From: Blasia pusilla
Lineage: Eukaryota
DNA: 64,000 nucleotides
Reading direction: 5' to 3'
Assembly (NCBI GenBank): GCA_050084515.1
Contig: CM114271.1
Coordinates: 16,430,001-16,494,000, forward strand
The position numbers were made by a program, and so were the translations under genes. Numbering within the stretch: position 1 is the stretch's first letter; the number at the start of each line of letters is the position of its first letter. Positions 7,185 through 64,000 of the stretch are shown here, piece after piece. The notes beneath the pieces were generated by a model, which searched no databases, was not told where the DNA came from, and worked only from the letters and a program-made list of their open reading frames with translations.

Positions 7185-7435
7185 TATATATAAGGTGCCC
7201 ATACGATACATAGACGTAAGAAAGGGTCAATAGAAAAATTGGATCAATACATTTAGGGTCAAACTTTTAAGGCCTCTACAAATAGGTCTTCAATTTTATC
7301 CTTCTTCGGGATAGCTCCACCACTAGAACAAATCATAGTTTTAATAACTGGCTCATATGACTCATTTTAGTCATATATAACCATAAATGAATGGCCTTGA
7401 CTGGTGACTCATGGAGTCACAAAAGCCTAGTCATG

Positions 7436-7788: not shown

Positions 7789-7789
7789 A

Positions 7790-7801
7790 TGGTATCAGAG
7801 C
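7790..7801 (+). promoter_or_regulatory. Primer-binding site (tRNA-iMet) of Ty3/Gypsy element 1
   Basis: TGGTATCAGAGC one base after the LTR-terminal CA. Confidence 0.9.
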
Positions 7802-8419: not shown

Positions 8420-9575
8420 ATGGAAGAAACTTTGAGGGATATGATTCGTGAATTGAGAGAGTTGAGAGTTGCATTTGATCAAAGTTAAAACCAAGTCCAA
8501 GAATTAGCGCAAGAAGTTGCTTCGGTCAGAAATATGAGAGTAGAGAGAGAGAGAGAGAGTTCTTCCGATAGGTGGGATGGAGACGGAAACCACGAGTGTT
8601 GTGACTTCTGGGGAGAGTGACGAAACCTTAAGGGCACGAGCATTGGAGGCCCAAGCAGCACAAAGAGTGATGGAGATGAATGCTCAAGCCTCATTGATAT
8701 TGAAAATGACAAAGGCATGCAAGGTAGAACCGTACAAAGGAAGTCGAGCCATGGGGGTATTAGAGGGTTGGATCACTCGGATGGAAATCCATTTATCCCT
8801 TTTCAACATTGATGATCATATTGCAGGGATGTTCGTAAGATCTTGGTTAATCGATCGAGCATTGACATGGTATCAAGGATGGGAGAGATCCTTGATTGAA
8901 ACAACTCAACAAATTACATGGAGCGGAATGAAGCAAGGGCTGCTCCAAAATTTCCAAGCTGTGGATCCAATCCTCAGTGCTAGAATGAAATTATGGCGAC
9001 TGGAGCAGAAAGGAAATGTGGAGGACTACATCGAAGAGTTTCGTGACTTGCATATACAAATCCGCGACATGAGTGGGCCAGAAGCTCTCGATCTGTTTAA
9101 GAGAGGTTTGAAGAAGAAGGTGCGTCAAGAGGTGATTCGAGACAACCCAAAAGATATCAATGAAGCAATCGCACGTGCCCAACGTATGGCAAATGTGTAC
9201 GAAGGAGGAGGAGAGGTGGTTGCTTCCATGAACAACCACTACGGACCCACACCCATGGAGTTGGGTAACCTTCGAGCACGAGATGGTTATGCGCCGCGAA
9301 GGTATAATGGAAGGGTGCCAATGGAGAGAGATCAGAATCTCAACATACAAGGGATTGCTCCTCAAACCGACGGGGTCGGGGTTCCTAGAGGAGGGAGAGA
9401 ATTCGAAGTCCGAAGAGATACACGCCAATGTTTTGAGTGTGGTAGATATGGTCATATAGCCATGAATTGTCGTCTTCGTAGGCTCGAAAATAGGCCATAT
9501 CATCGCCCCCTTAATCATCTTGAAGGAGGGCATATGCAGGAAGATGACGAAGAAGGCGGACCTCTGGAAAGCTAA
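8420..9575 (+). pseudogene. gag: gag of Ty3/Gypsy element 1
   Basis: Probable ATG at 8420 (MEETLRDMIREL, coiled-coil-like), then an in-frame stop and a frameshift near a GA run, then ORF 8577-9575 with capsid and CCHC knuckle. Confidence 0.85.
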
Positions 9576-11807: not shown

Positions 11808-12581
11808 TATCTCAGCCAATAAGGTTTCTTGTCCTCTCATCCAATATGATCTCTTGATCATTTCAAGTTGATTTAAGAGATCACTTAACAATTTTGGAGG
11901 TTAGTTAAGTGATTAGTCATACTTTTCTCTTAATATTAGGTAGTTTAAATTATTCATCATTGACTTATGTATGGCACTTGCATCCACTACTGCTTTTAAA
12001 GTAGTAAAATAATAGGTCCCAAGATATTATAGGTTTCTCTCCCCAAACTTGAGTGATATGAATTGGGATGAGAAACTTATGATATTAAGTGTTGATTTTC
12101 ATCAAGTCCTCCCATTTTCTTATTCTTCATGAAGTTTTATAGTCGAATATAAAATGTATTCGTATGGTCTCAAGTAAGGGTTGTGAAGGTTTGAAAAATA
12201 TTGGAGTCTATAATTTAGAAAGTACTTATTGAATGTTAATTACTCTCTCAATAATTATGCATACACTCTTCAATTTTTTTGATAACATGTTCATCTCTAC
12301 CTTGGATTGATTCTTTGTACATTGAGCAAGTTATCATCAATAAGCTTTCGTTGATTGGGTATCCAAGATTGGAAAGGATCATGTGCCTTTAGCTTTGGAC
12401 ATTGGAGACGACCTTAGAGGATTTGAGTCATATTTATCATATTGATGTTTTGAAAATACATGCATGCCTTTTGCGTCCACATTGTTTCTCATTAAAGATT
12501 GGTTTATTGATTGTGTTCTTGCAAACTACGAATGGCTTAAAAGGATGAGATAAGGGCATTTAGTTGGTGATGTAGTGATTT

Positions 12582-22347: not shown

Positions 22348-24765
22348 CTTAGTAGGTAGATGGTGCACACACGATTCCATGGATCGAGTTCAGAGATGGA
22401 ACAGCAGCTAGCGCAGGCGGAAGCTCAAAGGGAAGCTCTCAAAATCAGACTCAAAGAACGCGAGGATGAGCTTGAGCAGCTGCGCCAAGCCATGTTCGAC
22501 AATGTGAGTGAGGCGGCAGCGCCGCCTGAAGAACGTGTCGCAGATGCTGAACCAGCAAACCGTGCAGCTAGGGAGCTGCCCAATTCTCCTCCCCATTCAA
22601 TAACGGCGGCAGAGCGCTCGGGCGCACAGATTCAAGGTGAGAGACGCGGGCTGCTGTGGCCAAAGCCGGCGGAACCGCTTGTCTACAATGGAGAGCGGGA
22701 CCTGAGTTTATTCGAGTCTTGGGAATTTGTTATCTCGTTGTATCTACAGTGTTTTGCTTAGGCAGGGTGGTTCACGTACGCATGTTCCCGCTTAGGAGAA
22801 GTGGCTCGTCGCTGGTTGATGGCGGTGCAACGCGAGCGTGAAGCCGCCGCGCAGCCGCCCATTAGCACCTGGGAGGAGTTGAAGCAATTGATCAGAGCGC
22901 GGCTAGTGCCCGCCAATGAATATGTAAATGCAAGGCGATGGAGTCTTTATGTCAGACCCGTAGTATTCGCCATTACATATTTGAATTTGGTCACCTCGCG
23001 ACTCTAGCGGGAATGACGAATGTGGAAGAGAGGCGCTATCGGTTCATCTCAGGATTACAACACTTCTACGCCATGAAAGTGGAAGAATGGGGAGATGAGT
23101 TGGCGCTGGAAGCCGTATTTAAGAAGTTGGAGAATGTGGAATTCGCACGGAGAGAGCACGCTGGTCCGGCGACAACTAGACCAGCAGCACGCTAGTTCAA
23201 ACCGGCAAGAAGATGGAGAAGTGGCAAAGTGAGCCGCCAGATTCAAGGCCGCGGACGGCCGGGAACCAGCGGGAAATTTAGCACTACAGCGCGGGGATCT
23301 GGTGCCCTGCCACCGCGAGGATCTGGAGGTTCATCGGTGGGGTCAATTCTGAACCGGGCCGCCCAAACGCCAGCTCGAAACACGGGCGCGCCGGCCAGAT
23401 CTGAGACACCAAGATTTGGAATGCGGGCCAATTTGGCAGCGGCACCGGGCAGATCTTTGATGACGCCCGCTGTATCTGATGCATGCCGTTGTTTTCGATG
23501 CGGCCAAGGGGGACATTTTGTGAAGGAATGCCCGAACGCTGCTCTATTCTTCACTGATGGCGAGCATGCGGGTGAACCAGATCAGCAAGACGCCATCGGC
23601 GACACTAGAACCATTGAAGGCGTGGCTGAATTGGGATCAGGTATGCCTGAACTTGGTACAGCAGTGAATAGATGTTTGCCATGGGTGCGCATGTCCATTA
23701 AAGGGCAACCTATGTATTTCTTGTTGGACACGGGGGCTAATGTGAATGTGATGAATAGATCAGAGAGTAAGAGTCTTGGGCTTGCCGCAACCAAGATAGT
23801 CCAGCCCTTGTTAGTTCGGTTTGCTCAAGGATCCACGCAAGTGGATAGAAAATGTATGTCGGTTCCATTGTTGATAGGAAACACCGAACGCAGATCTGAA
23901 TTCTTGCTGATGGACTTACTGGGATCATTCATGGGAATTCTCTCTTGGAATTGGTTGCGGGAATTCAAAGCCATAGTTAATATCCACGAGGGATTTCTAT
24001 CCCTTTACGATAGATTTGGACAATGGAAAAAAGTTCCCTTGCTGAGGGCGCCTAAAACTGTAGAGGATCCCGAAGCCATGGCGCTGCAATTCAGTGAAGC
24101 GCGAGTAACCCACCAGGTTTGCTCCGCGCGTCAGTTTGACAAACTCCTAAAAACTTCCGATGAAGCTTGGACAGTTTTGCTGTCACAAGCCCCTACAGAA
24201 TCTGAACACCGTCACTTAAAACCGGAAGACGCCCGGCTTCATCCCGATATGAAAGCCTTGCTAGAGCGATACGCTGATTTAATGCCCAAGGAACTCCCGC
24301 CTGAATTGCCGCCTAGGCGCGCGCTCGTTCACAAGATCGAGATTCAGCCGGGCGCGGATATCCCTAGCATGGGGCGATGTTGCCGCATGACATGCACCGA
24401 GATGGAAGAAATCAAAGCCCTGAATGATCTGTTGAACAAGAATCACATTCGACCCAGTGTGTCGCCATACGCTGCCCCAATTCTGTTTGTGGCAAAGAAG
24501 GATGGGACGCTTCGGATGTGTGGCGATTATCGCGCTCTTAACAAGGTGACTCTCAAGAACCGCTATCCACTCCCGCTGATGGACGAGACTATGGATAGGC
24601 TCGCCACGGGGAGGTTCTTCACAAAACTCGATCTCAGATCGGGTTACCATCAGATTCGGATCGCTGAAGGAGATGAGTTCAAGACGGCGATCAGAACTCG
24701 ATATGGTCTTTACGAGTATGTGGTGTTACCCCTAGGCTTAACCAACGCCCCCGCCACATTTTGCA
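22348..24765 (+). mobile_element. Ty3/Gypsy element 2a internal region (gag-PR-partial RT), chromovirus-like, disabled
   Basis: gag 22360-23195 with stops and frameshift; [20 protein letters not shown] protease; [42 protein letters not shown], then truncated before the catalytic DD. Confidence 0.93.
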
Positions 24766-25142
24766 CGCTCTCTTCAAGAACCTTGAGCTCAATGTGCTAT
24801 GCCAACAAAAACATATACTTGAGAGTAGGTGAACCAACATGTCAGAGAGAGTCGCATCATGTATCCTCTTCTGCATCTCACAATGTAGAATCGCATACCA
24901 CAATTGATGCTATTAGCAATAGGATGTAAGCTAATCCATAAGTAACATTTAGCACTCCGAATGACAAAGATTGATTCATACAAATCTAACTAGGTGGTTC
25001 ACGAACTGACACGCAATTACAACAAAAGGGTTGCAAAATCTAGCTCAATGAATGACATGAAGCAGGAGATGACTCACAATGAGGCACAAGGAAAAAAAAA
25101 GAGCTTTAAAAGAAGAATTGTAACAGAATGGATGACGTTATT

Positions 25143-32469: not shown

Positions 32470-34460
32470 TGATGGAATCTCCGGATAATCAATCAATAAC
32501 CTCCTCCCCAAATGGTTGCATACTTCATTGTGTTCCTATATTATGAAATTGCTAAATTCTTCAAAATACCGTGGGTATGACTCTTTGAAATATATACATC
32601 CTCATAGAAGATGCTAGCATCTACTCATAGAAGTTATTGAGCTTCATCGTCTCATTAACATTATAAAAAATGAACGTAGCTAAATCTGGCTCTTGCTGAA
32701 AAACCAAAAAATTAAGGCAAAAAGGATCCCAAAGATGCTTGCATGCTAAACCCATATCCCATCTTTAACAATGGTTGATGTGGGTCTTGATCTTTTAGAT
32801 GACCTCCCTATAGACTGTAGTTGTGAAAGCCCCTTTACACCATCTTGAGAACACACTCGACTAGACCATCTATCTTAGGATGATATTATGATATCCTATG
32901 ATGGTCGATAAATGCTTTATCACGGAAGATTTGAAACTCCCCGTAAAGCTTGAGGCTATGGTACGTCAACATTTATGCTAGTGTCACATACTAACTCATG
33001 CTATCTATGTGTCTTGTATTCTATCGATTACCATTGAGACACCTAAATGGTAAGCTTGCTCACCATTTGCATCTATTATTGCCTTAGCAAGGGGGTTAGA
33101 GGGAGATGGGAAGGTACTATACATGTACTATTCTTGTGGCATATGGTTGAAGTTGCATTAGGGTTTAGATTCATTCCACTTGCGTAACTTTAGGCTCGAG
33201 GAGAGAAGCTTGTAGAGTTCATGATGTACAATGAGTGCAAATTTTAGTAGAGCAATATGATAGTATTTAACCGTGGATGCAACTTTTAGATAAGAAGTAA
33301 TCCACGTATATCATATGTGATTTATTTGAGTGATTGTCCAATTTTCTTCCAACAACTAAATACTTTGATGAGAAATTTATATATTGCTCCCTCACTCACC
33401 ATGTGGGGGAATGCAACCAACTCTATCCACTTCGAGAAGTTCTCGACCATCACCAACATTTATCAATTATGGAATTTTGTCAATAATTAAGGGCTTGAAA
33501 TTAAAATCCAAAGTCCATTTGTAGCCTAAACTCATTATTGGAAGTGGATGTAATTGTACATGTGAAGTTGGAGCATTTAATGATGCAAAAAAAAGGCAAT
33601 GTGTCAAGCTTCCCTATAAGTTTGTTGGATCCCATCAGCTCGTGTCAATGGTTGATCATCAAGGAGTTACCAAACAAGAACATCTAGAATGGATGATGAT
33701 CCACACTACAATGAAACACTCTCCCTTATTCAAGTTTTATTTCACCTCATCAACATTTTTTAGCGGCTAGCCTAAGCCACTATAAATTCTCTATCATGAT
33801 CGTCATGTTGAGTAAGAACCGTTCCAAATCTCATTAGACTCTTATCTGTATATATTTCGAAATTATCCCTTGTAATTGATCTCCGCAAGATAAACGTGGC
33901 CTCCGATAATTCCTTAAAAATTTTAAATACTCTCTCTTACTCATCTCCCCACTACCACTTTTGATCCACTTTTGTAAATAAGGTTAGAAGTTTTGCAATC
34001 GCAATGAATCTCTTGACGTATCATCGATATAAGTTTTCCAATTCCATGAATGCACAAACTTGACTCACATACATAGGGCATGTAATGCGTGAGATAGGCC
34101 CTACCTTCTTTTTATGAACACCAATTCCACTTGGGTATATCATATGACCCCAGTTGAATGGGTGAGATAGGCCCTACGTTCTTTTTATGAACACCGATTC
34201 ACTTGGGTATATCGTATGACCCTAGTTCTCAATCTGGTCATAGAAGAACCTACACTTGTGTGGATGTAGCTTCACCTCATGTGATTGCAATGTAAATAGC
34301 TCTACAAGGTATTGCTCATCACAACGCAACAATTGGCGGTACGTTGCAGATACAGACATCATGACATGATACTCGATCAAGTAGAGTGGCTACCAATCAC
34401 TATGCATGGCAAAGAAAAAGTTGAAACTCAAACCTATCAATAAAAAAAAACTCAAACCCA
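32470..34460 (-). mobile_element. Old, internally deleted relative of the DNMT/PHD Ty3 element (leader + RT/RNase H + integrase remnants)
   Basis: Reverse complement aligns by eye to 56020-56150 (34310-34450), 61670-61900 (34000-34290, with an internal ~72-bp duplication), 62060-62260 (33630-33820) and 63150-63640 (32470-32980). Confidence 0.8.
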
Positions 34461-48400: not shown

Positions 48401-51400
48401 TGCTTACAGGACCCTAATGGTGACTTTAATTCTACAATACAAGATTTCAACATAAGAGGAAGGGGGGTCTAGTATTAAGGGGAGTTCTATATGTAAGTGC
48501 GGATCTAAATTTTGTGGGAGGTTGAATGTAGCCTTTGGGTTAATGCCATTGCTTGTTAGGTCTATTGGAAAAATGGGTATTGCCCCATGTTATTTTTGTT
48601 GATGGCCCTAATGGTGAAATTTTTTTTAATCCATGGGGATTTTTTTAAAAAAATCCTATTGCCCCTAAGAAGCGACGATGTAGTAGCCCCTTGCATCGCA
48701 TCAAGCAAATACAATTGAATGAATATGACATGTTGTCAAATGCATAAATTATTAGGATGGAGGGCATATATGGATGATGGTCAATATTGTATTAAAATGT
48801 GATATTCATTCCATATTCATTAGAAGGTACGCATGTACCGCATGGGATTAGAAATGATTGTAATTTAACCCATCATTATTTTATGTAAACAAATGATTTA
48901 ACCTGCCCTATTTTACTTTTGAATGATTCTATGGACCGAGAGGGTGAATGATCCAATTGGTTGAGAGGACTAGATGTCAAGAGGAGAGGCGATTCAAAAT
49001 CAAGAAGGCATTCTCCAATAATCATATAGATGTTTTATATTCATATTATTATTTATATGTATAGGCATCTCCCTAAGAAACTTGTTCACCACCATACACT
49101 CGTCATAGACGGCCCTACAAAGACAACTAGGGTGTATTTGACTCCTTGCCAAAATACCCCCTATTAACCTAGGTTAGAGTTCTCAACACAAACTAGAGTT
49201 ACCCATGAGGAATATAAGTAACATTTTCTACCCTTAAATTTGATTTAGTAAGGCTAAGGGGCTCAATATTGAAAACCCATGAGTATGGAACTTTTAAGGA
49301 AAGGTAAGCAAATTTTGAAGGACAAGACAAAGCCTATCAAGACAATAATGAATAAAGTGTTAGATTATATTTCAAAGTGACATGCACGTCACTTTTTTGG
49401 ACCACATATTTTATCATAGTCAACTGTAGAAAGAAAATGGACTTCACTTTATAATGAATATAAGAAAATGTTGTGAGACATAGAATTATAATAATGAGTG
49501 GTCTCCATACTTGGAATTTATCAAAAGTTCATTCACATGTAGAATATATAAAATAGTTCCAACCACTAATAGCTATTCACTTTTTGAATAAAAAAAAGTT
49601 CATTTGACTTGAATATTCATCCAAGTGGTTTCTTTTACAATCCATGACAAGGTTTTCTTTTCATATATTCGATACATTGAATGGTCAACCTTTGCTTACT
49701 ACTTCAACAACCTAATGAAAATCCACCTTAATTTTTATATTTTAATTCATGATAAATTAAACATGAACTTTTTATATTCTATTCTTGTATGAAGAATATA
49801 ACATTATAAAATTATATATTGATAATATAATGGAAATTATTTTTTATATAGAATTCCCATTTTATTGTATACTTGCAATGGGAATCAATGGGGATGAATT
49901 TAAGAAAAACTTTATACTATTTACTAATAATCCATCTTATTATTAGTACTAGGAGTTAATGAATAGAAAATTTTTTTGTCACATATCTTTTTTTCAAATA
50001 TCAAATTTTTTTCACTAAGATTTACTTAAATATGTCTATTTCATATTCTAAATAAATTTATTCATAATTTTTGAAAAATTTCGAAAATTTTAAAAAATAT
50101 ATTTATAGCTTCGCATATGCCTTTAAACTAGTTAATTAAGGATATGGACGATTATTATCCATCATTTTCATCTCAAGTTGATGTATATGGATTTAACACA
50201 CTCAAATAAGGTCCTTTTTAACCTTGGATGGAATGATTTTCCAAGGTGGGAGTTTCCGTGAGTCCATCTCTTCACCATGGGAATAGTCAGAAACATATAT
50301 TGAAAAAAAATTCTACCATGGTGCATACAAGGAAAAATTATGAAAATTTTTCTATAGATTATGACCTATACCATTGAAATTTTTTCATATAGAAAGCCAT
50401 AAAATTCATTATAATCAAGTTACGTATATAAGGACATGAAAGGAAAAGTCCTCACATTTCAAATTTTGGCATCAGAAAAAAATAAATCTAGGCCATACCT
50501 TTTATAGGTTGGCTACTAAACGATAAGAAGTTGAAAAGGAGCACATCACACTAAACATATGTGCAGTCCTTTTTTCCATTACCTTCTTTTTTATTTACAT
50601 TAGGGAAATCACATATCTCATTCTCTCAACGATGAAGGATTGGCCAAAATGGTGAAAGGAATGTGTGTTATCTATACACAACTTATAATCTACATCATTA
50701 TCAACATATTCCTCCAAGTCGGAAAACCACACAAATATAGACATCAATACCTCCCTATGCAAGTTCTATGGTGATACTATATATAGAATGATATAATCAA
50801 GAGATCCATATATTGAGAAAGTATCATTCTCATAGGTGCTCCTTGATCATACCTCGAATGTTGGAAATATCTTCATCATACCCTACTCAATTGCAATGTT
50901 GCCACATGAATCACATTTTCACCCTATCTAGTGATGTGGAATTATAAGTGTTACTATATCCAAAGTCTATATAGAATTTACTTAACCATTCTTAAGCCGT
51001 GCAAGGACATTGCATATTCAAGCATTCATCAATGTTTAAGTGTGCTTCGTGCGAGAATAGTGAAGTGTACTCCATGGGAGAATCATGATCTAAGAGTTGC
51101 ATGAATGCTATATATTGCATTCAACATAATTATCATATTTTATTTGGATTTACTATGCCTTCTCCACACTCAGTCTGCTACTTGTGAAAATTAGTCTCCA
51201 ATAACAATAAAAAAATATTATGTATTCAAGTATTCTTAAACTTGAAGTGTAACTTTGCATGAGGTATGAGGTATACTACACACGGGAACAATGACTTGGG
51301 AGTTTCAAGAATGGTATAATTGAACATTATTACATCATTTTCTCCTGATTTATTTTGTCTCCTCCGGATTTACTATGCTTCTAGGGGACCTAGGGAGAAG

Positions 51401-51449
51401 GAAATGACTAGCTAGTCGTTTGCATTTGGATTTATCTCCAATCAAAAAT

Positions 51450-54400
51450 CTTGAAAACGTAATTTTGGCTTAACCGATTTCCACGCTATTATTAAGCCTA
51501 GTGAAACATTACCACAAATTAGTAGAAATGGGTGTGATGAAACATTTGAATTCTTGAAATAGTATGAGAATATCTTCATTGTTAAGAAGACCAAGGATCA
51601 ACTGAAGGGCAAGACATTCCACCAAGGTATATTTTGTTGTTTAGGTTTTCTCAAAGATTAATTTATTTTGTTTTCTTTGTGTCTTCATAGGATATGTTGA
51701 TAGAGGACCTATTTTATTAATTCGTTATGGTTGCCCAATGAATAAATTTGGATCTAGATATTGTACCTTTGTTGACTTGGATTTCACACTCTAGAATTGG
51801 AGTGCTTCTATTCTATGGAGTACATCTAGCTTACTTGAGAATCCACACAACCCATCACTTTTGTGTAGGGGTGTGTATTTGATGAAGGCTCATAAAAAAA
51901 AAGGTAATCAATAATATTCAATACATGCTTGGATGTGTCAAAGGGCAAGGGGATGAAGTCATATGGTGAGGAGAATAATGTCAAAAGTGGAAATATATCA
52001 CAAAATGACTCCTTAAAGAAAATACCAATTTTTTAAAAGTTATGCAAGGCTAGAAAGGTATGGCACTCCATAAATTGAATTCCAATATCTTGATTGATTC
52101 TACAGTTGTAGAAGATATCAAAATTTAAAAATAAAATTAAGGGGAAGCAAAAGGTTTGATAGGATATCACATCTTTTTGTGCAAATATTTATACCAATAC
52201 ATTGGTGATTTCCCATCATAAGTCACAAAAAATCAAGAATCTGAATGCAAATAAATTCCAAGGGAATGGAGAAGAAAGCAGTAGTTCAAGAGTGCAAAAG
52301 GGAATGTGTAATGGCTTATTCTATGTTGTTGAAGCACATGCATGGTTTCCCTCTTGGAAACAACAAAAAAGTAGTAGTGAAGGTGATGGCTTTAGGGGAC
52401 ATGGTTGGTGAGATGATAAGAAGAAGGAAATGGGAGTCAAATAGATACACCTACAAGGAATAGCAACGTACATGAACATCCTTTGGTAATAGATGCCTAA
52501 ATGGAAAGGCTAGTAGTGAATAAATCAAAACCTCAAAGAAGTCATCGGAGAGCTTGATATCAATGAGTAAAGGAGACGATGGATATCATCATCACTAGAG
52601 TGAACATTATCCATAATTTCCCTAGCCAAATTTATAATTGGTGTGGTCCAAAAGAATCAATCCATATAAGTGGTTAGCTACTATCCTTGCCAAAAACATA
52701 TATGTTGACAAGAAATTCACACATAAATTATCTAATCATAAACCATAAATTCAGTGTTGAGTTATTGAATCCAAGAAATTTATCTAGTCATACAATTTTT
52801 CTAATAGTGTTATTGATATTGTCCTTACGGCAAATCTACATGGATTTTGAGGCATGTGAAGTTCACAATCTAGTGTAAACTTCACCACTCATCTTCTAAG
52901 TCTTTAAAGCTACAAAAATATACTCATATTCCTTGGGCAAGGAGCCATCTTATAAAATATCCCCTTTTGGGTATGTATTCATATTTGGAAATTTAGGCTT
53001 CAAAGAAACAACCATTTTTTTTCCCTTAATGCCAATAGAAGTTGAACACAAAGAAGCAACTATGGCAACATATAAATATTTTTGGTAGAATAACCTACTT
53101 TTAGATACATGGTTATAATGGTCACTTAAAATTTTCATATACATGGATAATATCATTTTCATTCATTTGACAAACAATACAATGCTAAGTATTGGGTCAA
53201 TGCACATTGAGGTACATTATCAATTCATTAGGCTTCCAAATGTTCCCAAAGAGAAGATCCCAATAATTTAGAGACATCCATAGGATTTATTGAAAGTTAA
53301 GATTATGTATGAAGAAATATTCAAGATACATTATTGATGGTCCTAAATATTCCATAAAATCCACTTATATTCCAAACAAGTCGATGTAAGATATCTCAAA
53401 TCTAAATTATCTTGTGTGAGCAAATTATGCTTATTAAGGGGGAATTTGGAAAAAAAATAATCTGGATACTCTTGGCATAATTATAATCTTTGATAGGATT
53501 ATATTTGATAATTTAGTTAACTTTGTGGATTGGTAAATATGGCCCTTGGGATAACAAGTTAGGACTAGGTTGGTGACTTGTGTACATAATTTACACTCGG
53601 AGTTATATATGAGTGTGGGTTATCCATGTGATAGAAGATTTTTGAGCTTATTCTCTTTTTGTCGCATGTTTTGTTCTATTTCACAAGATGTGGCATAACC
53701 ATTTCAATACATGAAATATCCACATTCCTTTCAAATACCACTCAAATTTTTGAGATTGCATCTCCGACTATCCTTGTTACTATGACATCTTTTTCTTGCT
53801 TTGTAGAATTCTTATTTAAGCTACTTTGCTAGACAAGGTGTTTAATGTATTTTTTGTTCAGTAAATGAAGTTCAAACTCTTAGTCTACAAAATTCCTCCC
53901 AACTCAAAGAGAATAAGATACTTGAATGTTCCTCATAATGGGAAATCCCCCATTGGAGCACATGATCCTTCCTCATTATGATTACCATTGACCTTGTCCT
54001 CCTCATTTGCAAGTAGTGCTTCAAAGTAAAGGTTGACTTTGATGAGTAACTCTTCGATTTTACTTTAATGCCCTATTCTTGTTAATGGAAAGGGAAATTT
54101 TATCTTACAAAGTTTCTTACTAGAGATGGATGCTTGATCCATCTCTAACTCATAAATTCACCCACTTTTTTGGATCATTTGTTCCAACAAAATCTTCATA
54201 ATACCCATCATTTGAATATAGAGAACCGAGATATTTGATTGAAGGCTAAATTCACCTCTCAATAATTCTTATGCTTAGATCTTGTTGGTGTGATGCTTAC
54301 CACAATCTCCTTCTTTGGATTTTGGTCAAGTAAGGGTTTAACTCTTATTTTTTGGCATTTGATCCAACATGTGAATGAAGATCCATCCACCATTTCTATC

Positions 54401-54627
54401 TTCAAGCCCTTTTCCATTCAAATTCTTTCCTTGTCTTACGTCCCTCACCAAGTTTCAATCGCAACTTGTAGTTTGGAGTCCATACTCACCAGGGATTAAC
54501 TCTGTTACCAAATGTCATGCATGATGCACCTAGTCCCTTGAATTTCGATCTTGTGTGTTGTGAAAGCCTATTTTCAACATGTTCAACTCTCCTTGTTATT
54601 TGCACCCAAACGCACTCACACTAGTAA
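51450..54627 (-). mobile_element. Highly degraded LTR retrotransposon remnant (probably Ty3/Gypsy)
   Basis: Minus-strand LTR end GCATGACA followed by PBS-like TGGTAACAGAG (54500-54510). Faint RT-start-like (IVLFVK, about 53170) and RNase H-like (ECLAL, about 51610) traces in the expected order. Confidence 0.45.
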
Positions 54628-56664
54628 TGTCACGTCTTTTAGGATAGATCGGTGGGATCTAATAGAGCGCCTTCATGAGTAGTGGAGGACACGCCCAGTA
54701 GGTCGAGGGTGACCTGCTGAGGCCCTTGGAAACCTGAGATAACAGGTTTCCCCTTCGTTTCGGCTCATTTGGAGCCATATTGAGGAACTTACTATTTTAG
54801 GTAAGTACCATTTTGAGTATATGATCGACTTACTATTTTTGGTAAGTGGCTTTTGACCTCCTACATCAGGTCAAGAGCCAAGGAGGTGACTTGGGAGAAT
54901 AGGTTACCATGGAGAGAGCTTGGGACAGGAGAGGGGTATACCTCAAGGAGAGAGAGCTTGAGAGATCATTCTCTCTTTGTTGAACCTCTTGGCATGAGGC
55001 GGCGGAGCTATGGTACCTTGCCTTGTGAGTGTAACCCAAGCCTCTCATTAGGAGAGTGGGTTTGGTTTGACATGAGAGAGAGTGCACACCTTTGAGAGCT
55101 ATGGTGTGAGATGGTGGAGAGAGAGATTGGATCTTACTTTACAAAGAGAGAATGAGAGAATGAGAGAGTGAGAGAGTGAGAGAGCTTCATGAGGGAGCTC
55201 GCTAGTCACTTGTTGTTTTTGCAGGTTGGGGACCGTGTTCCCCATTCAGCGGCTCATGGGAGTGCTCACCGGAGCAAGGGCTGCTTTCATTACTCTTTGC
55301 ATTTACCGATTTTTCGTGTGGAAGAGTGGCGCGCGGAAGCGCTGCCCAATTTCTGATAGGGATTGAGTATGGGGGCAGGTTGCCCCATGCTGGTGCTCTC
55401 GGGAGCACCATGTAGCTTGTTGATATGTATTTTTACAGATGTTACATTTTCGTTGGGAGAAATCAGCGCGGGAGCGCTGCCAAATTTTGTGTAGGAGAAA
55501 GAGACATTGGGCTTTACGACAGTCCCCGTCAGTTTTTACTGAAATGTCTGATTCTAAATATTTTTGATAGTAGCGTAGATCGTGAAGCTGTGCACGCTGT
55601 GCAACAAACAATGCACAATTTTGAGTTGCGAGCAAAAAGTTATGGGCAATCTTGTAAAGCTGCCATTGCTAGGCGATTTTTAGGGTTAAATCGTGCAAAC
55701 CCTAAATCAGCCGCCACACCGGCGGCGGCCGTCGCCATCATAGTCACCGTCAACGGTCAACCATCACCGTCACCGGTCAACCGTCACCTTTGACGGTCAA
55801 CCGTCACCGTCATCGGTCAGCCGTCACCATCAGCGGTCAACCGTCACTGTCAAGGGTCCACCGTCCATTGTCCACCCTTTGGGTGCCATTGCCGCCATTA
55901 CGGAGTGGAGGGTCTTCCATGACGTTCGTTGATTCCTTGACTTGCGTCGCCACCACGTACTTTGTTTTGGCCGCCAACGTCATCGCATTTCTTCATCAAC
56001 CGTGAAGGAGATGACCTCCGGTTATGGTGTTTGAGTTTTGATTTCATCTTTCGCTATGTTGTGATTGGTAGCCGCCGACGACGATCGAAAGTATCGCGTG
56101 CCGTGACGCCGTGAGCCGCAACACGCCGCCGATTGCCGCGCCGTGCGCTGCGGGCCGCACCGCACACCATCTCGATTGCGGAGCCGCACCGTCATTGTGG
56201 AGCGAGTGTGGGATTATTATTGATTGAGGAGGGTATGGCTGGAGTGCCACATCCCACCATCGAGGGCCATGCCGTTCGAGCCGTTGCGCCGCCGCAACGC
56301 CGCACGTTCGCTGGGACCGCATTGTCTATCGAGGAGTTTTGAGCAAAGACATCGACGGGAGGAGTATGACTTGCTGATTGGAGGAGTTGTCTCCACGATC
56401 GAGTTGGGGTCGAGATTTGCGATTCTTTGAGGAGCGACATCGACATGTGTTCAGTTACCCATTCTCGGTCCTTTACCCGCACGTGTGAAGGATTTCGGGA
56501 TTTATTTGGGGATATTGGGTGTGTGGATGCCGAGAGCATCATTTATGTATGTGGTTTAGGGGACATAGACCGTGTGGGATGTCCGGAGTTGAGGGTAGGT
56601 TGTCGATGAGATGATAGCCTGGTCGATTTGCCGCACCACGCTGGGCGTGTTGCCGCACGTTACA
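54628..56664 (+). repeat. Putative ~2 kb 5' LTR of the DNMT/PHD element
   Basis: TGTCACG...CGTTACA imperfect terminal inverted repeat; GC shift at 54628. No tRNA-Met PBS follows and the second LTR is not in the window. Confidence 0.4.
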
Positions 56665-56949
56665 CGTCTTGGGGGAGAGAGTGTAGATCAAGTGCCGCAT
56701 GTTTGGGATGAGTGATTGAGGGATTCCTCACGAGGTTCAGAGTGATCGGGTGAGAGGGGCACGAGGGTCATCACGGAGTCCTGCATTCGGGACTTTGAGA
56801 GGCGAGGTGGTGAACCCGAGAGTAGCTCTAGAGGTTTTACGCGGAGTGGCGCGAGGTTTCGAGGGTCTCCACGTGAGGGACCACCTCGACCTCCTTCTGT
56901 GTCATCGTCAGACGAGGGGGAGGGTGTAGAGGAGTTTGTGAGCACATCA

Positions 56950-57976
56950 CCACACATTGTGAGTGGTCCTACCAGTTGGGCGTACGAGATGGATGACCGG
57001 GGTAGAGGACCGCGTAGGTTTTCAGGTGTAGTAGGCACGATTGAGTTGCACGATTTTATAGCAGAGTTTAGGAGTTGGTGCGACTCCCAGCGGGCCAGGA
57101 ACTCTAGAGAGTTTAACCCGTTTATAGCATGGAACGGTATGTTCCAACATTTAGAGGGGGCGCCCATGGACGATTACCATGAGTTCTCTCAGAGATATGC
57201 ATGTGAGATCGAGGCGTGGAGGCTCTACTATGACCCACATTATGTGTCATGGACGGAGCCGTTCCCGATGATGAGGAGGAGGAGTCGAGAGGCTCCGCCT
57301 CTTCCACTAGTGACGTTTTAGGAGGGGTCACTCGCACGGGAGCAATTGCACCGTCTAGTCGGGTTCGTCCCACGTTCAACCTTGTGGTTGAGTTCTTTGC
57401 TGAGTTGAGGGCGAGCTACCAGGGGGTATGGACGGAGAAGTTGCGGAGCATCCACGACTTCTAGAGGCGCTCGGGTGAGAGTTTGCGTGAGGCTTACACT
57501 CGCTGCGCGCCGGTTGATCAACGTCACTCGGGGGTGATAGAGGCTCAGCTATCCAGTCATGGTATGCGATGCTGGACCGGACCCTGCGGACACGGGTGCG
57601 GGAGGGGGTGCTTCTTATGAACACCTCCCCTACGTTGAGAGATGTTTTTAGGACCGCCGAGAACATTGAGCGCAACATGGCGGAGGAGAGCGTAGCCACC
57701 ATGGGTTCTGGGAGAGCGAAGCACGATTGTCTGCACCACCCTGTGCAACAACGTGGACTCCGAGATAGGTCGACTGTGGCACCACGAGCTCGGGGAGGAT
57801 ACCGAGAGGCCGTGCCACGAGACCCACGCCTTCATATGAGGCTGGAGCAGCCGCCTACTATTACTTGTTGGTCATGTGGTGGAGCCCATCATCGCCGCGA
57901 TTGCACTCGGGGGTCATGGACGTGTGCCTCAAAGATGGAGGAGGAGATGGTGCGCACCAGGAGGTTATTAGCATGA
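56950..57976 (+). pseudogene. gag: gag of the DNMT/PHD element
   Basis: PRRFSG...ELHDFIAEF..WCD, ESLREAY-like major homology region near 57480, CCHC knuckle from 57866. Frameshifted. Confidence 0.75.
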
Positions 57977-58879
57977 CTATTGTCGAGGTATGGTCATACA
58001 CGCCAAGTGTTTTAGTTTACATCCTGAGTTACGTCTTGGACCGAGGGCCGAGAGGGCACCAGAGCGAGTAGCCGGTCCGGGTGGGCCTAGAGATCGTGCT
58101 CAGGTGGTCCCGTTGGGGACGAGGAGTGGAGTTGCCCCGACAGGGTGGTGGAGTTGCCGTGGAAGAGGTAGAGTACCACCACCTAGACGCGCCAAGGAGA
58201 TGCCGGACGTGAGGTCGGGATGGTCGCCGATACATGGCGCGACTACTGAGGAGCAGATTGCCGCTATGGCATTGAGGTTACCCGATGCCGGATCCATGGC
58301 ATCGACATCATATGGAGCAGCCAGAGATCCGAGGATCCTGGATGGATGTGCGGGGTTGCCCAGATGGAGGCCGCCGCAGATTTGTGATGCGTGGAGCAGC
58401 CGCAGAGTTGGATCACAACGAGGGGAAGCCGATGGACAGACTAGGCTTCCTCAATCTTTCACGTTGTCCGAAGCGATGAGGACCCCATCGATGGGTCCTC
58501 ATCAAAGTTCCTGGAGAGTTGGTAATGTTGTTGGTGTGCAAGCACGGAGGGCGATGGGAGAAGCGAGTGCGACGACTCCTATTGTTGATGCTCAGGAGGG
58601 GCATGTGTCGAGCACGTTGTTGGGGGCGGCCACCGTTGTGTACCGCACTCCTTTATTTTTTGCTTCCGATGTTGTGACGTTGGGAGGTACGCCCGCCGAG
58701 GCTTTTCGGCTGGCCGCTTCACTATGTGAGCGCGGAGTTGGAGTTCCTGCATCACGTTCAGAGGTGATTGCAGAGGAGGTGATGGACCGCCCTTGAGCGG
58801 ATGCTCGGGCCGCCCACGTCGATTCATGGCAGTGCGGTCGCTAGTATGGCGGGATGCCCGCTAGACCCGCGATAGAGCG

Positions 58880-59160
58880 TGCCATGGCTTCTCCTGGTGT
58901 TGTGTTCTTCGGATAACCGAGGAGAGGTCTTCCAGTTGGTGAGTCCTGGAGGTAGAGCTTTTAGTCCGCAACACGCGTCTTGTTGGTTTGGAGCGCAACC
59001 CTTGATGTTGGGGAAAGCGTCATTCAGAGGATTGGGCTTGACGAGAGCCGATGTGGAGTGTTGTCCATTTTGGATACAGACATCCTTGGGTAGAGCGAGT
59101 ACCACACAGTATATCACCCGACAGGAGGTCATGGTGAGGATTCGCCGGGACATCCTATAG
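58880..59160 (+). pseudogene. Aspartic protease region of the DNMT/PHD element
   Basis: RVLL-(DS)-GAQPLMLG..GLGL with a damaged catalytic motif at about 58975-59010. Confidence 0.6.
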
Positions 59161-59688
59161 ATGAGTCCGTGGTGCGCGCCAAGGCGATAGTGATCGATCT
59201 TGAGTCCACGACGTCTTGGTTGGTGGAGCGTGTTATACCCGATGGGGTTTTCGGGATTATTGGGAGGAGTCATCGTCCCCTGCACCAGGATGGCGATCGG
59301 TGATGGGCGCCTTAGCTCATTACCCGTTCGATTCACAGTAAATGATCGAGCAACGGCCGAGAGATGGCGACCTTAGCAAAGATTTAGCGGTGCCATCACT
59401 TGGCCTAGTGATTTGATTGAGGGACATGTCCATGCAGAGGATACTCCGTTCGACATTTCTATGGAGAGGAGTGTTATGGTAGCCGCATCATTCCGTGGAG
59501 GAGAGGTGCCGTTGTGGGGCTCGATTGAGGAGCTTCAACGATTGGCGGATCGACGCGAGATCGGCTGCGTGGAGCGAGGCGTTTGCACCGAGCGTGACGG
59601 GTCCGAGAACCCGAGGTAGCGGGGAGTGCTACGATGACACCCTTGGATACAACACCCATTGTGTGGTGTACCGGGAGGAGGGTTTTCG

Positions 59689-60620
59689 AAAGTGTTAGAT
59701 CTCTTTGGAGGGATTAGCACCGGGTTAGTCATTGTTTTGCGAGCATGAGTGCGAAAGTCAAAGAAGATTTGTATGTGGAGAGTGATGATGTTGCAGGCGC
59801 GTCTCACTACGACATGTGGCGCAATTACGCCACGTTTTCCCGACTTATTGTCTGCGTCCGTAGTACTGGGTACCGAGTTTCCCTACCGAGGATATTTTGT
59901 TGTTGGGGCGCAGGACTTAGAGCGGTAGGACCATTGATTTGGTCATTGCCGGTTGGCCATGTCGCCAATCGAGTCTTTGGACGAGGCGGCGGGTTGGCCG
60001 ACACTCGGTCCAGGTTGTTTTGGGAGATGTTGAGGGTCTTGGCGATTCAGGAGCACCGGCCTCGTTCTCCGGCCTACATTCGGAGAATGTGCGATCTTAG
60101 AGACTCAGGTCACGGGTCGTGACAAGTGCTCATCAAAGTGCGTGCCTGGATCGCCCAAAGCAGGTGTTCTTGGATGCGGCGAGTGTAGGTTCTAGAGCCC
60201 ATCGCCCGCGTCTATGGTGGACCAACTTGGTGCCCCATGCGGTGTTATGGAGGCCGTATGCGAGAGTGGAGCGCCCCTCCCCTTTGTTAGTGGATTCCAT
60301 TCTGGATCCAGGTCATCGATCACAGGCAGTGAGGCACGATGATCGACCACCGCTGATTGTGGTCAACAAGGTAGGCAGGCCACGGGCAACCTTGCCCACG
60401 TTTGTGAGTTTTCCCGCTTCCTATGCATACAAGGAGGCCGGTCCTAGCTTGGTTTGGGATGACCAGGTTCAGCGGTTGGTGGAGCCCAACGCCGAAGAGA
60501 GAGAGAGCGAGCGATGGGATTTCCCACATGAGTGACGGCAGTACCATCAGTGTCAGAGGCATCACGACGCCATGTCTTCGGTTAGGCGATGGACTTGAAC
60601 TGCTTGACATGGATCCTCAG
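59689..60620 (+). pseudogene. DNMT3-like C5 cytosine DNA methyltransferase domain embedded in pol
   Basis: Motif I KVLDLFGGISTG (59689); II LYVESD; III EDI; IV IDLVIAGWPC (Cys codon 59960-59962); GLADTRSRLFWEMLRVL; VI ENV (60083-60091); VIII LDAASVGSRAHRPRLWWTNL; IX EERERAMGFP; X RRHVFG*AMD. Canonical order and spacing, broken by frameshifts and 2 stops. Confidence 0.9.
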
Positions 60621-60965
60621 CTTGGGAGTGGTTGAGCAGCGTCGTATGAGATCGCGACAGATCACAACGGTTGCTTTGGTGAGCCCCATGCCTACCGAGA
60701 CGGTGGAGGCAGTGGCTGGGGGCGAGACCGAGGAGATCTACGCACCATGGGAGATCGGGAGAGACACCCTTGGACTTCTTGGGATGTTTTGAAGGTAAGC
60801 AAGGAGATGATAGCCACAGCATCGAGCGTGGTTTCGGGCACTGCACGTGGAGGAGATCAGAGTTTGCAGTTGGCTGCAGGAGTGCGGCCGAGTGTTGTTG
60901 TTCAAGACGGGGTTGCACCATAGCAACCACCGATACCTGCGCCGGAGAGTCCTACCGTAGTCACG

Positions 60966-62360
60966 ATGGAGACTTGGGATCTAGATATGGGCCCTAAGTT
61001 GACAGGAGGAGAGCGGCGCCGAATACATAAGTTCCTCAGGAGTTATAGGAGCTGCTTTGCGTTTAGCATGGAGGATTTGGGTACGCTGAAGGGACCGGGG
61101 ATCCGCATTGAGTTGTCGAGTGATATGCCGATCTTCCGACGACCCTACAGGTACAGTGATATGGAGAGGGCTCTGATTCAGAGTAGGAGCCAAGACTTGG
61201 TCGGAGCAGGACTAGTGGAGATGTCGCATGGGGAGTATGCATCTGCCAATGTCATGCCCGCCAAGAAGGATGTGCATGGCAACTGGACGGATAGGCGGAT
61301 GTGTGGGGATTACCAACCTATCAATCGGCAGACGAAGTCCGATAGGTATGCCATGCCCACCCTTGAGGAGATCTTTGATGCGATTGGTCACGCAAAGGTC
61401 TTGATTCATTGATTTTGAGCCGATACCATGTTGCCTCTCGATTGGAGGACAGCGTAAGACGGCATTTTGGGGCATCGATCCTCACGGGAAGGATTGTTTG
61501 TACCAGTGGCGGTTCTTACCATTTGGGTTAAAGAACGCCCCGGCTGAGTTTCAGAGGGTCATGGATAGGATCTTGGCTGGTCTGGATTTTGCTAGGTGTT
61601 ATATTGATGACATCGTAGTCTTTAGCGCCACGGTTGAGGAGCACGAGCAACATCTAGAGGAGGTGTTTCGACGATTGCAATCACATGGGCTGAAGCTACA
61701 TCCAGGCAAGTGCAAGTTCTTCTACGACCAGATTGAGTACTTGGGTCATACGATATACCCAGGGGGCCTTGGTGTTCAGCAGACGAAGGTAGAGGCTATC
61801 TCACGCATTCCACGCCCTACAGATGTGAGCCGTGTTCGCGCATTCATGGGATTGGCGAAATTCTATCGGCGATACGTCAAGGGATTGATTCGATTATGGC
61901 GCTGACCTTGCTCACCAAGGTGGATCACGAGTGGCACCTTTGGGGGGATGAGCGGAGCGAGCATTTCAATTGCTCAGGGCAGGTTGGCGTCCGCACCCAT
62001 CTTGAGGAGACCGATCGGGGCGTCCTTTCGATTGCACGATTGGAGCATGTTGGGGCTTGGAGTGGTGCTCACCAAAGCATGATGATGAGGGTAGAGAGTT
62101 TGTGGTGGCTTACGCTAGCCGCTCGAACAACGCCGCAGAGGCGAAATCGGCTTGTATGAGGGTGAGTTTGGTCGGTGTGGGTTGTCGCGCATTTTAGGTG
62201 TTACTTATTCGGCAACCCCTTTACCATCATCATCGATCATCAACCACCGAAGTGGTTGATGGAGTCCGACAAGCTTACAGGGAAGCTTGCGAGATGGGCT
62301 CTGTTGTTGCAGGAGTATGATTTTTGGTACATAGACCTGGAACGCTCAACCAGGATGTAG
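60966..62360 (+). pseudogene. pol: RT and RNase H of the DNMT/PHD element
   Basis: RRMCGDYQPIN, YAMPTLEEIFD, PFGLKNAPAEFQRVMD, YIDDIVVFS, YLGH, VVAYASR, DHQPPKWL, GKLARWALLLQEYDF. Confidence 0.95.
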
Positions 62361-62632
62361 ATGGGTTGAGTTGTAACCCATGCCCGAGTCAGCGAGATGC
62401 GATTGGATCTCGATGGCATGGAGAGAGTGATGAGGAGTCGGTGCCAGGATGGCACGCGTCAGCCTATTTAGGCATGTTGGCTATGGAGAGCCAGAGTGTG
62501 GAGACTTTGATGGCGAGGTCTAGTGGAGAGTCTTTGGATCCCGAGGCGGTGAGGACACGACAAGTGGCGAGATATTCATGATGATGGAGTAGTCTTAGAG
62601 TACCTTCAGACATCGGCAGCCTTGCAAGCACC

Positions 62633-64000
62633 ATGGATGCTAGAGAGCGGGATCGGATCCTACAGCGGGCCAGACGGTTCCGTTGGGAGGGGACACATGT
62701 TTTGAGGGTTTGGGAGGATGGCAGAGTACCGCGAGTGCCGCATCCTTTGCAGAGAGCACGACTAGTGCAACATGCCCACGAGGAGTTGGGTCACTTTGGG
62801 GTGAAGCGGACGTATAGCTTGCTCCGGATTCAATATTGGTGGCGAGGCATGCAGGCAGGCGTTCAGCAGCTTTGTTGCCAAGTGCATGGTGTGTGATCGG
62901 GTCCGAGCATCGTTCAATGCTCGACTCCACAATTGCATCCATTACCGATCATGGGCTTAGGGTATAGATGGAGTTTGGATTTTGCGGGACCTTTGCCCTT
63001 GACGGAGCGCCACGATCGTTATGTGTTGGTGATGGTGAGCACTTCTCGAAGTGGATCGAGTTGGTTGCATTGCCGACAAAGCAAGTGAGGGAGTAGCTTA
63101 TGCCTTCCTTGACAGAGTCTTTGAGTCATTATGGCGCACCGGTGAGGTGTTGATGACCAGGGTACCGAAGTTTCGCGGTGAGTTCCAGGCCTTGTGTGAC
63201 GGGCGATCGACCATCGCGCGACCGCGAGATCATCCCGAGGCGGATGGATTAGCGGAGAGAGTTGTGCAGACGGTGAAGAGGCGTTTACGCAAGTATGGCT
63301 TGCAGAGAGGTCACCTAGGAGATTGGGACCTCTAGTTGCTATGGTTGGCGATGGGATACAGATTCAGCAGGCAGGCATCCTTAGCGTCTTTTTCACCGTA
63401 CTTGCTACTTTATGGCCGAGAGCCACATTTACCTGCGGCCATTCGTCGAGATGCTGGTGAGATGGTGAACCTTGATGACCCAGATGTATGGGTGCGAGCA
63501 TGTTCTCAGAGGGCTGAGTTATTTCGGAGAGTGATGCTCATGGCGTTCGAGAACTTGGCGATTGCACAGCATCGGGATACGTTGAGGTATGCGACTATTT
63601 GAGGTGGTAGTTATCGACCAACTATCCGGAGGTTTCATCAGGGAGATTATGTCTATTTGCAGCAGACGGCACCGATGATGTTGGATGTGACTGCAGGGCG
63701 CACTATCCTGAGAGTGCGTGACATTTTGCCATCGGGTGTTCTCTTGCTTGAGGGACGCGATGGTATGGTATGGAATGACCATGTGCGTAATTGTGCGCCA
63801 TGTCACCTTCCTAACATTGATGGTACATTAGATCCGAGCTTAGTAGTAGTTCCTGCAGGCTTGCGTTGTATGTTGTGTGGTTCTGCCCGTGGTGCGGCCA
63901 CGATGCTAGTCTGTGATGGCTGTTCGAGAGGATGGCATATGGCATGTTTGACGCCACCTCTCACTAGGGTTCCTCAAGGACGATGGATGTGTCCCAGATG
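62633..64000 (+). pseudogene. Integrase with C-terminal PHD finger (63867-64000)
   Basis: HEELGHFG..YWW, WSLDFAGPLP, HPEADGLAERVVQTVK, FSPY.LLYGR, then in frame after the TGA at 63600: CMLC...MLVCDGCSRGWHMACLTPPLTRVPQGRWMCPR(C). Confidence 0.92.

Follow-up and report, generated by a model that had tools for sequence, protein, structure and literature searches.

Can a reader of histone marks and a writer of DNA methylation work as one module inside a single retrotransposon? The question is raised by a 64,000-nt stretch of the genome of Blasia pusilla (GCA_050084515.1, contig CM114271.1, positions 16,430,001 to 16,494,000; below, the window, whose own positions are used as coordinates unless another locus is named). 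Toward its right-hand end lies a Ty3/gypsy-type element in which the integrase (IN) is followed by a PHD finger, and which also contains the relic of a DNMT3-type cytosine methyltransferase. A sequence-only reading of this arrangement had proposed that the element picks its targets by histone mark and methylates DNA there. We find that the window element is a fossil copy of a Gypsy-DNMT3-type family that is found widely in bryophytes and charophytes and whose members have a conserved PHD finger at the C-terminus. In the reading that we favor and regard as probable, the finger is the last domain of a polyprotein of reverse transcriptase (RT), RNase H (RH) and IN, where it would tether the integrase to the tail of histone H3 and bias integration, and the DNMT3-type enzyme probably acts separately.

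The PHD finger in the window is genuine. A single open frame of 132 codons spans 63603-63998, and its residues 89-132 match PF00628 over profile positions 1-46 of 47 (43.2 bits against a cut-off of 24, E 3.9e-11). The ligands are spaced C89-x2-C92-x11-C104-x2-C107-x4-H112-x2-C115-x14-C130-x2-(C), the C4HC3 pattern recognized by the sequence-only reading, with the codon of the first Cys at 63867-63869. Seven of the eight zinc ligands lie within the window, and the codon of the eighth is cut by the window edge, as had been noticed before, breaking after 'tg' at base 64000. The aligned relatives possess the full set of eight, where the series closes with ...CPRC (alignment A1, 17 sequences comprising the window and 16 relatives); PF00628 scores of the relatives are 33.7-45.1 bits. 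A phmmer search of PDB sequences with the last 53 residues returned 78 distinct PHD-bearing sequences at E<=0.001, including CHD4 (E 6.9e-16). A chance Cys/His pattern is ruled out by the Pfam and PDB scores.

A structural view of this region was obtained from an intact relative, L036 (9317 nt, two open reading frames [ORFs]), which also served as the reference for tblastn searches of the window element. The last 210 residues of L036 ORF2 were modeled with AlphaFold2 from a 32-row alignment (mean pLDDT 72.9, pTM 0.39); the sequence modeled is this homologue, 66% identical to the window sequence, rather than the truncated window copy itself. The PHD finger occupies model residues ~150-197, with a pLDDT in 10-residue blocks of ~87-93 over most of the finger. 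The model was searched with VIA-align (48,161 chains; stated background Z 7-8) and with Foldseek. The finger superposes on the PHD finger of ATXR5 with a VIA-align Z of 8.7 and a root-mean-square deviation (rmsd) of 1.4 over 52 residues at 40% identity, and on that of BHC80 with a Foldseek TMt of 0.81 and an rmsd of 1.3.

The segment that joins the finger to the integrase had been described as an 86-codon open linker. It measures 88 codons up to the first PHD Cys and is a conserved domain, five-stranded in the model of the relative, rather than a linker. These 88 residues carry RFxxGD[YF]VYL and N[CV]APCHLP, the two motifs best conserved in the family, and in alignments of 17 and 32 sequences (A1 and A2) many of their columns show little or no variation. 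In the L036 model, helices at residues 10-64 are followed by five β-strands at 81-132, with a 10-residue-block pLDDT of up to 92, and VIA-align matches model residues 70-137 to Tudor, KOW, PWWP and SH3-like small barrels at Z 6-7.5. No Pfam family was found on the 88 residues at E<=0.01, and integrase C-terminal domains are absent from the 50 VIA-align rows and the Foldseek rows listed; we assign the segment as the integrase C-terminal barrel by its position after the rve core and the C-terminal helices, its motifs and its modeled fold class only. The finger follows this barrel directly and stands where chromoviruses carry their chromodomain, as the sequence-only reading had noted.

The window copy is a pseudogene (Table 1). 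Its domain order is gag, protease (PR), DNMT3, RT, RH, IN and PHD, and tblastn with the L036 ORFs recovers it as nine pieces in three frames, one of which (62856-63998) holds six stops. Remnants of methyltransferase motifs (DLFGGISTG, GWPC, ENV and RPRLWWTNL) can be read in a three-frame translation. Within the integrase, the H2C2 zinc domain lies at ~62750-62878, the catalytic core is frameshifted at ~62900-63040, and an in-frame TAG at 63333-63335 interrupts the C-terminal helices; no Pfam family was found at E<=0.01 on 63039-63332 or on 63336-63599. The open frame begins at 63603 because the triplet before it is an in-frame TGA. At these two stops the relatives carry Gln and Arg, respectively (A1). 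The earlier statement that the region shows no frameshift holds inside 63603-64000 and fails upstream of it, where the TAG, the TGA and the core frameshift lie, and in this copy the PHD finger cannot be translated together with the integrase.

Table 1. Parts of the decayed gypsy-type element at the right-hand end of the window, in order of position
Feature	Position	Strand	Evidence
gag relic, with CCHC zinc knuckle (CWSCGGAHHRRDC) in ORF 57518-57976	56746..57976	+	ORF list; L036 gag tblastn 56986-57177, 38% over 66 aa
Aspartic protease relic	58915..59445	+	L036 PR segment tblastn, 32% over 185 aa, E 4.9e-9
DNMT3-type cytosine methyltransferase relic, three frames	59653..60642	+	L036 DNMT tblastn, 42% over 194 aa, E 1e-37
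Reverse transcriptase, two frames	60966..62076	+	Pfam RVT_1, 89.8 bits on 61405-61905; tblastn 60966-61403 and 61435-62076 at 57-58%
RNase H relic, frame changes and stops	61936..62380	+	L036 RH segment tblastn; pieces with 4 to 11 stops
Integrase	62585..63599	+	Pfam Integrase_H2C2, 46.9 bits; tblastn 62856-63593, 50% over 264 aa
In-frame TGA stop	63600..63602	+	Directly 5' of the 63603 frame; Arg in relatives, motif ATIRGGGYRP (A1)
Integrase C-terminal small β-barrel, motifs RRFHQGDYVYL and NCAPCHLP	63603..63866	+	Conserved columns in A1 and A2; AlphaFold2 model; VIA-align
PHD finger, C4HC3	63867..64000	+	Pfam PF00628; phmmer against PDB sequences

In intact copies, the finger and the integrase are fused in frame. 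L036 ORF1 (976-5085, 1369 codons) encodes two CCHC knuckles, an aspartic protease (weak Pfam matches, with the motif DSGA visible) and, as its last domain, a C5 DNA methyltransferase (PF00145, 51.1 bits), which among solved structures best matches DNMT3A, 3B and 3C (E ~1e-7), with M.HaeIII and M.HhaI at 5e-5 or worse. ORF2 (5086-8229, 1047 codons), which lies in the same frame as ORF1 after a TAG, holds RVT_1, RT_RNaseH, Integrase_H2C2, rve and, last of all, PHD in one open frame that stops 13 codons past the last PHD Cys. The IN core finds its best structural match by sequence in the Ty3 Gag-Pol structure 7q5b (E 2.5e-14). Both the window and L036 show the pol order of gypsy elements, PR-RT-RH-IN, with the gag CCHC upstream.

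The same fusion recurs among relatives. A protein search limited to longer proteins gave 36 matches at E<=0.001 among 292 candidates; PF00628 is present in 31 of these 36, rve and PHD occur together in 19, and five (P0015-P0018 and P0020; 1033-1106 aa) combine RT, RNase H, H2C2, rve and PHD in one protein, P0018 being a complete ORF from a transcriptome of Coleochaete scutata. Other named hosts are Marchantia polymorpha (up to 81% identity), Calypogeia fissa and Sphagnum fallax. The protein ends within ~15 residues of the last PHD Cys in 14 of the 16 aligned relatives, and the remaining two, P0032 (904 aa) and P0033 (1100 aa), extend into further domains. These are distant relatives, at 47-50% identity, with sequence beyond the integrase-PHD part: the end region of P0032 has a DPFCGTGG motif that resembles motif I of S-adenosylmethionine-dependent methyltransferases, and P0033 joins a DNMT-like N-terminus and a G-patch to IN-PHD (Pfam: DNA_methylase, G-patch, H2C2, rve and PHD), with no RT detected by the Pfam scan.

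Genomic copies were collected by scanning metagenome loci for the two barrel motif patterns given above, which produced at least 597 matches, 502 of them confirmed, of which the best 80 were retained. All locus counts are drawn from these best 80 of at least 502 confirmed loci; domains were scored with L036 segments as tblastn queries, a locus being testable where it has enough flanking sequence. The CHLP motif and a complete PHD finger share one open frame in 22 of the 80, and this frame is long only in L036 (1047 codons) and L033 (825 codons, to the contig end); most copies elsewhere are thus as decayed as that in the window. In L036, the TAG that ends ORF1 is followed by CAG TTA (5083-5091), and ORF2 continues in frame. 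We take this to be the UAG-CAR-YYA read-through context of plant viruses, which would suggest that pol is made by read-through; among 24 loci with DNMT and RT matches, most of them decayed, the signal TAGCARYYA was found in one, L036.

An open frame in a decayed element could also be part of a host gene, here a domesticated PHD protein encoded by 63603-63998. The 132 open codons would fit such a gene, as would a set of M. polymorpha gene models named 'PHD-type domain-containing protein' (142-239 aa), which fall into the 90% cluster of the closest relative, P0001. That cluster also holds full pol proteins of 1035 aa, however, and in the window the open stretch extends the decayed integrase without a change of register, with two stops intervening, and is collinear with the gag-PR-DNMT-RT-RH-IN relic in its entirety; the RNA reads, too, derive mostly from other copies, and neither a start codon nor a promoter came to light, no search having been aimed at them. 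We therefore regard a host gene as most improbable. The short Marchantia models are probably fragments of the retrotransposon family rather than host genes, which is a warning for annotation, as many models of that name within the cluster probably have this origin.

The reads in question come from three RNA sets of one organism (X22-X24), each with 440-570 reads on 56000-64000. Only 13-31 per set reach an identity of >=99%; the reads are mostly 95-99% alike, and ~45-47% continue into unlike sequence. In almost every read the first mate lies on the minus strand, which indicates sense transcripts if the libraries are of the usual stranded kind. At 63333, the first base of the TAG, where the window has T, the first-mate-minus reads carry C in 14 of 17, 14 of 22 and 25 of 32 cases in X22 to X24. 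Related copies are transcribed in that organism, and the reads stem mostly from copies other than that of the window.

The methyltransferase is a regular part of these elements. Of the 34 loci testable for it, 29 have it upstream of the integrase, and DNMT and PHD are both present in 23 of the 27 loci testable for both, which bears out the expectation that the two co-occur across related elements. A search with the DNMT segment found 47 longer proteins, many of them gag-PR-DNMT products of ORF1 (1228-1451 aa), and Closterium proteins (P0153-P0156) are among the matches. The earlier formula of reader plus writer in one element is correct insofar as a DNMT3-type domain belongs to the same elements, in L036 as part of ORF1; the two domains are encoded in separate ORFs and are not fused in the manner of DNMT3 and its ADD domain.

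The stronger form of that proposal holds that the element's own DNMT3 is guided to its sites of methylation by a PHD finger that recognizes a histone mark there, as a self-contained module in which the finger stands in for the ADD domain. The co-occurrence of the two domains in L036 and in 23 of 27 loci would suit this, as would three single predicted proteins that contain DNMT, IN and PHD (P0143, P0144 and P0033). The nearest solved relatives of the finger read unmodified H3, the same state that is read by the ADD domain of DNMT3. The layout of the intact element argues otherwise: the DNMT is the last domain of ORF1 and the PHD finger the last of ORF2, with a TAG and ~990 residues of RT-RH-IN between them, and protease processing, the usual fate of gag-pol, would part one from the other. 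Moreover, the finger follows immediately on the integrase barrel, in the place that targeting domains occupy, and it resembles the fingers of CHD4, ATXR5 and KDM5, with no ADD domain of DNMT3 or ATRX among the 60 PDB sequences listed. In the accessible passages of the literature, PHD fingers also occur in transposons that have no DNMT. The two are encoded in separate ORFs, on either side of RT-RH-IN. A direct coupling of PHD and DNMT is possible but unsupported, and we consider a module of this kind unlikely.

The finger appears to be maintained as a working part of the polyprotein. Over 825 codons compared between L036 and L033, nonsynonymous divergence (dN) is 0.07 and synonymous divergence (dS) 1.19 (dN/dS ~0.06). 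By domain, dN and dS are 0.027 and 1.04 for the integrase core, 0.037 and 1.35 for the barrel, and 0.069 and 1.32 for the PHD finger (dN/dS ~0.05); these ratios are rough, since a dS above 1 is saturated. The 13-codon tail past the finger is unconstrained in the same comparison (proportion of nonsynonymous differences, pN, 0.57). In a set of ten sequences, made up of nine of the 22 open loci and the window, the median pairwise dN/dS is 0.25 for the PHD finger (computable in 19 of 45 pairs) and 0.135 for the barrel (16 of 45 pairs), the other pairs having a dS that is saturated or below 0.1. By these estimates, the finger is clearly kept by selection like the enzymatic domains. The ORF2 products of L036 and L033 are 89% identical as protein and 81% as DNA, with synonymous divergence near saturation. 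Such values indicate that the family has long been active and subject to selection, probably in different hosts.

Constraint of this strength speaks for a function of whichever kind, and would equally suit a finger that binds some other partner, such as a chromatin or nuclear-import factor of the host or a protein of the element itself, and thereby aids escape from silencing or assembly of the integration complex. A hint in this direction comes from the Foldseek search with the whole C-terminal model, in which the top rows are the Tudor-plus-PHD cassettes of PHF1, MTF2 and UHRF1, as if barrel and finger formed one unit with a composite ligand. These superpositions have an rmsd of 12-14 Å, and the pTM of the model is only 0.39, so that the domains appear alike and their mutual arrangement is uncertain. 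Most of the close solved relatives of the finger bind the histone H3 tail, and its place at the C-terminus of the integrase parallels that of the chromovirus chromodomain. We judge a partner of another kind to be improbable and retain the H3 tail as the predicted ligand.

Which state of the tail would be read is suggested by the neighbors of the finger. The nearest solved PHD fingers by sequence are CHD4 PHD2, PHF12, the second fingers of KAT6A and DPF3, PHD1 of KDM5A/B, KMT2C/D, PHF21A (BHC80), ATXR5, AIRE, BAZ2A/B and UHRF1. By fold, VIA-align places ATXR5-H3 and DPF2 (Z 8.7 each), the ORC1b BAH-PHD structure 'with unmodified H3 peptide' (8.1) and CHD4 PHD2 (7.1) above BPTF bound to H3K4me3 (5.9), and Foldseek matches BAZ2A 'with unmodified H3K4 histone peptide' at a TMt of 0.80-0.83. 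Readers that hold H3K4me3 in an aromatic cage have a Trp two residues before the ligand His; in the present family this position is an invariant Gly (G364 in A1). These sequence and fold neighbors suggest that the finger recognizes H3 tails whose K4 is unmethylated.

Several points weigh against this assignment and against the role built on it. A Z of 8-9 in a search of 48,161 chains is barely above the stated background of 7-8, although the 40% identity to ATXR5 supports homology, and the specificity of a PHD finger is not reliably readable from overall similarity. CHD4, KDM5, BHC80 and AIRE, which we take to be readers of H3K4me0, are so described in only some of the entry titles. The finger lies downstream of the integrase in 69 of 69 testable loci, a count that is biased, as the query that selected the loci itself included the PHD. 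No DNMT is detectable in five of the 34 testable loci (L001, L011, L051, L059 and L070). The saturation of dS and the origin of most RNA reads in other copies count on the same side.

Taken with these reservations, the likeliest role for the finger is that of a histone-binding domain with the specificity named above and an effect on integration. In working copies, the PHD finger would be translated last in the RT-RH-IN polyprotein and remain attached to the integrase; by binding the N-terminal tail of histone H3 it would hold the integration complex on nucleosomes and bias the choice of landing sites. Since the closest solved fingers bind H3 whose K4 is unmethylated, new copies are predicted to avoid promoters marked by H3K4me3 and to favor unmarked or silent chromatin. 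The DNMT3 of ORF1 probably acts on the element's own new DNA, unguided by the finger; a self-methylation of retrotranscribed DNA has reportedly been suggested by de Mendoza et al.

A broader idea, tentative and rather doubtful as yet, is that a lineage kept from charophytes to liverworts and mosses has split the logic of DNMT3 over two products: an integrase PHD of the H3K4me0 type would place copies in unmarked or silent chromatin, and a DNMT3 without a reader would methylate the new DNA. If this were true, the element would both choose and write its own chromatin state, and purifying selection on the two modules would imply that the element gains from such self-silencing or camouflage. In any case, gypsy elements with a DNMT3, known first from Klebsormidium, are numerous in bryophytes, where they regularly terminate in a conserved PHD finger, and they offer a testable case, in the plant lineage, of a transposon with a chromatin reader and a writer of DNA methylation.

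The terminal repeats of the family are of an unusual kind. In the window copy none were found within 50000-64000, where the search gave only a 20-nt tandem repeat, and the 3' end of the element lies beyond the window. The tandem array, with a 20-nt period (GTCACCGTCAACGGTCAACC-like), occupies 55743-55882, ~0.9 kb 5' of the gag relic; blastn of 52000-57000 against the 80 loci gave no matches. Two identical plain long terminal repeats (LTRs) flanking the element were not found in the relatives, which have split direct repeats instead. The layout is A-coding-B-A-B in L038 (A, 2705-3041 = 11458-11794, 91%; B, 11339-11453 = 11794-11908, 94%) and in L078 (A, 2528-2820 = 11407-11699; B, 11226-11405 = 11700-11879), and self-comparison of long loci shows partial patterns of this type in L007, L019, L026 and L053. 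The split, DIRS-like repeats occur despite a DDE integrase, and no tyrosine recombinase was seen.

The neighborhood of the element in the window is transposon-rich. Ty3/gypsy-type remnants lie at 8544-11807 on the plus strand (gag-PR-RT-RH-H2C2), at 23196-24929 on the plus strand (CCHC-PR-RT) and at 32517-34290 on the minus strand, the last a strongly decayed RT-RH-IN copy set in AT-rich DNA (GC content ~0.34), with 68-80% DNA identity to the element studied here. An intact frame of 692 codons at 3206-5281 on the minus strand encodes an EXO70 exocyst subunit (Exo70_C, 456.7 bits; Exo70_N, 57.3 bits) and appears to be a host gene without introns, ~50 kb from the element.

The idea is less novel than the sequence-only reading had assumed: DNMT3-bearing gypsy elements have been published, and so have transposons equipped with a PHD or chromodomain reader. 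KnitGypsy-Dnmt3, a gypsy element of Klebsormidium nitens, has DNMT3-related domains in Pol (PMC5890265), and its repeats, laid out A-coding-B-A-B according to the legend of Fig. 4c, have a structure given in that paper as 'the same as that of a DIRS retrotransposon'; the word 'PHD' has no occurrence in its main text, figures and supplements apart. The available text of bioRxiv 10.64898/2026.05.21.726589 names 'streptophytes (Gypsy-DNMT3)', and that of PMC12344493 places DNMT3 members inside streptophyte and dinoflagellate retrotransposons. The present family has a DNMT3-type domain in its coding region (L036 and the window relic) and A-coding-B-A-B repeats in L038 and L078. It is like KnitGypsy-Dnmt3 in its gypsy RT/RH/IN, its internal DNMT3-related methyltransferase, its DIRS-like repeats and its streptophyte hosts, a likeness by description, and no search returned a K. 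nitens sequence; it differs in that the named hosts of the relatives are liverworts, a moss, Coleochaete and Closterium rather than Klebsormidium. In the searchable text of the literature, which leaves figures and supplements aside, no description of a PHD together with DNMT3 was found, either in a gypsy element or in Marchantia.

Chromodomains direct gypsy integration (Gao et al. 2008, as cited in PMC6673714 and bioRxiv 2021.11.30.470311), and the passages available from the same two sources call the PHD a similar accessory of retrotransposons. As in chromoviruses such as MAGGY, a small chromatin-reader domain, presumed to be a nucleosome tether, directly follows the integrase C-terminal barrel; unlike in chromoviruses, the reader is a PHD finger rather than a chromodomain, and the predicted ligand is the unmodified H3 tail rather than H3K9me. 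Membership of the chromoviruses was rejected: Pfam finds no chromodomain in L036 ORF2, P0016, P0018, P0006 or P0033, where the PHD finger occupies its place. The finger is an accessory of the polyprotein, as it is in the PHD transposons of green algae and animals (REM1 of Chlamydomonas, which we take to be PHD-bearing, Gypsy-7a_cRei, CR1-like LINEs and the cnidarian elements with a PYGO-like PHD). Craig et al. (PMC8557442) refer to the PHD as 'a common accessory domain' in Chlamydomonas, and most of the 823 chromatin-transposon fusions of bioRxiv 2021.11.30.470311, as described in its available text, involve a PHD or a chromodomain, the chromatin domains most often joined to transposon domains there. 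The accessible legend for Gypsy-7a_cRei lists the PHD between RH and INT (PMC9940879). Here the finger is C-terminal to the integrase and accompanied by a DNMT, with which the PHD elements of green algae and animals are not reported in the passages available.

Two further systems combine a reader with a methyltransferase. EpiLTRs of Cymbomonas and Euglena carry a chromodomain, DAM and DNMT, according to the available text of bioRxiv 10.64898/2026.05.21.726589. As there, one LTR-type element pairs a chromatin reader with a cytosine methyltransferase; EpiLTRs, as far as that text describes them, differ in having a chromodomain as reader, a DNMT that is sister to DNMT4 and lies 3' of pol, and an adenine methyltransferase, whereas here the reader is a PHD finger and the DNMT3-type domain lies between PR and RT. 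In animal DNMT3, a single polypeptide holds the reader next to the catalytic domain, and the two are allosterically coupled. The elements described here likewise bring a DNMT3-type catalytic domain and a PHD-like reader, probably of unmethylated H3K4, into one genetic unit, but they do so in separate ORFs with RT-RH-IN in between, and with a canonical single PHD finger in place of an ADD domain.

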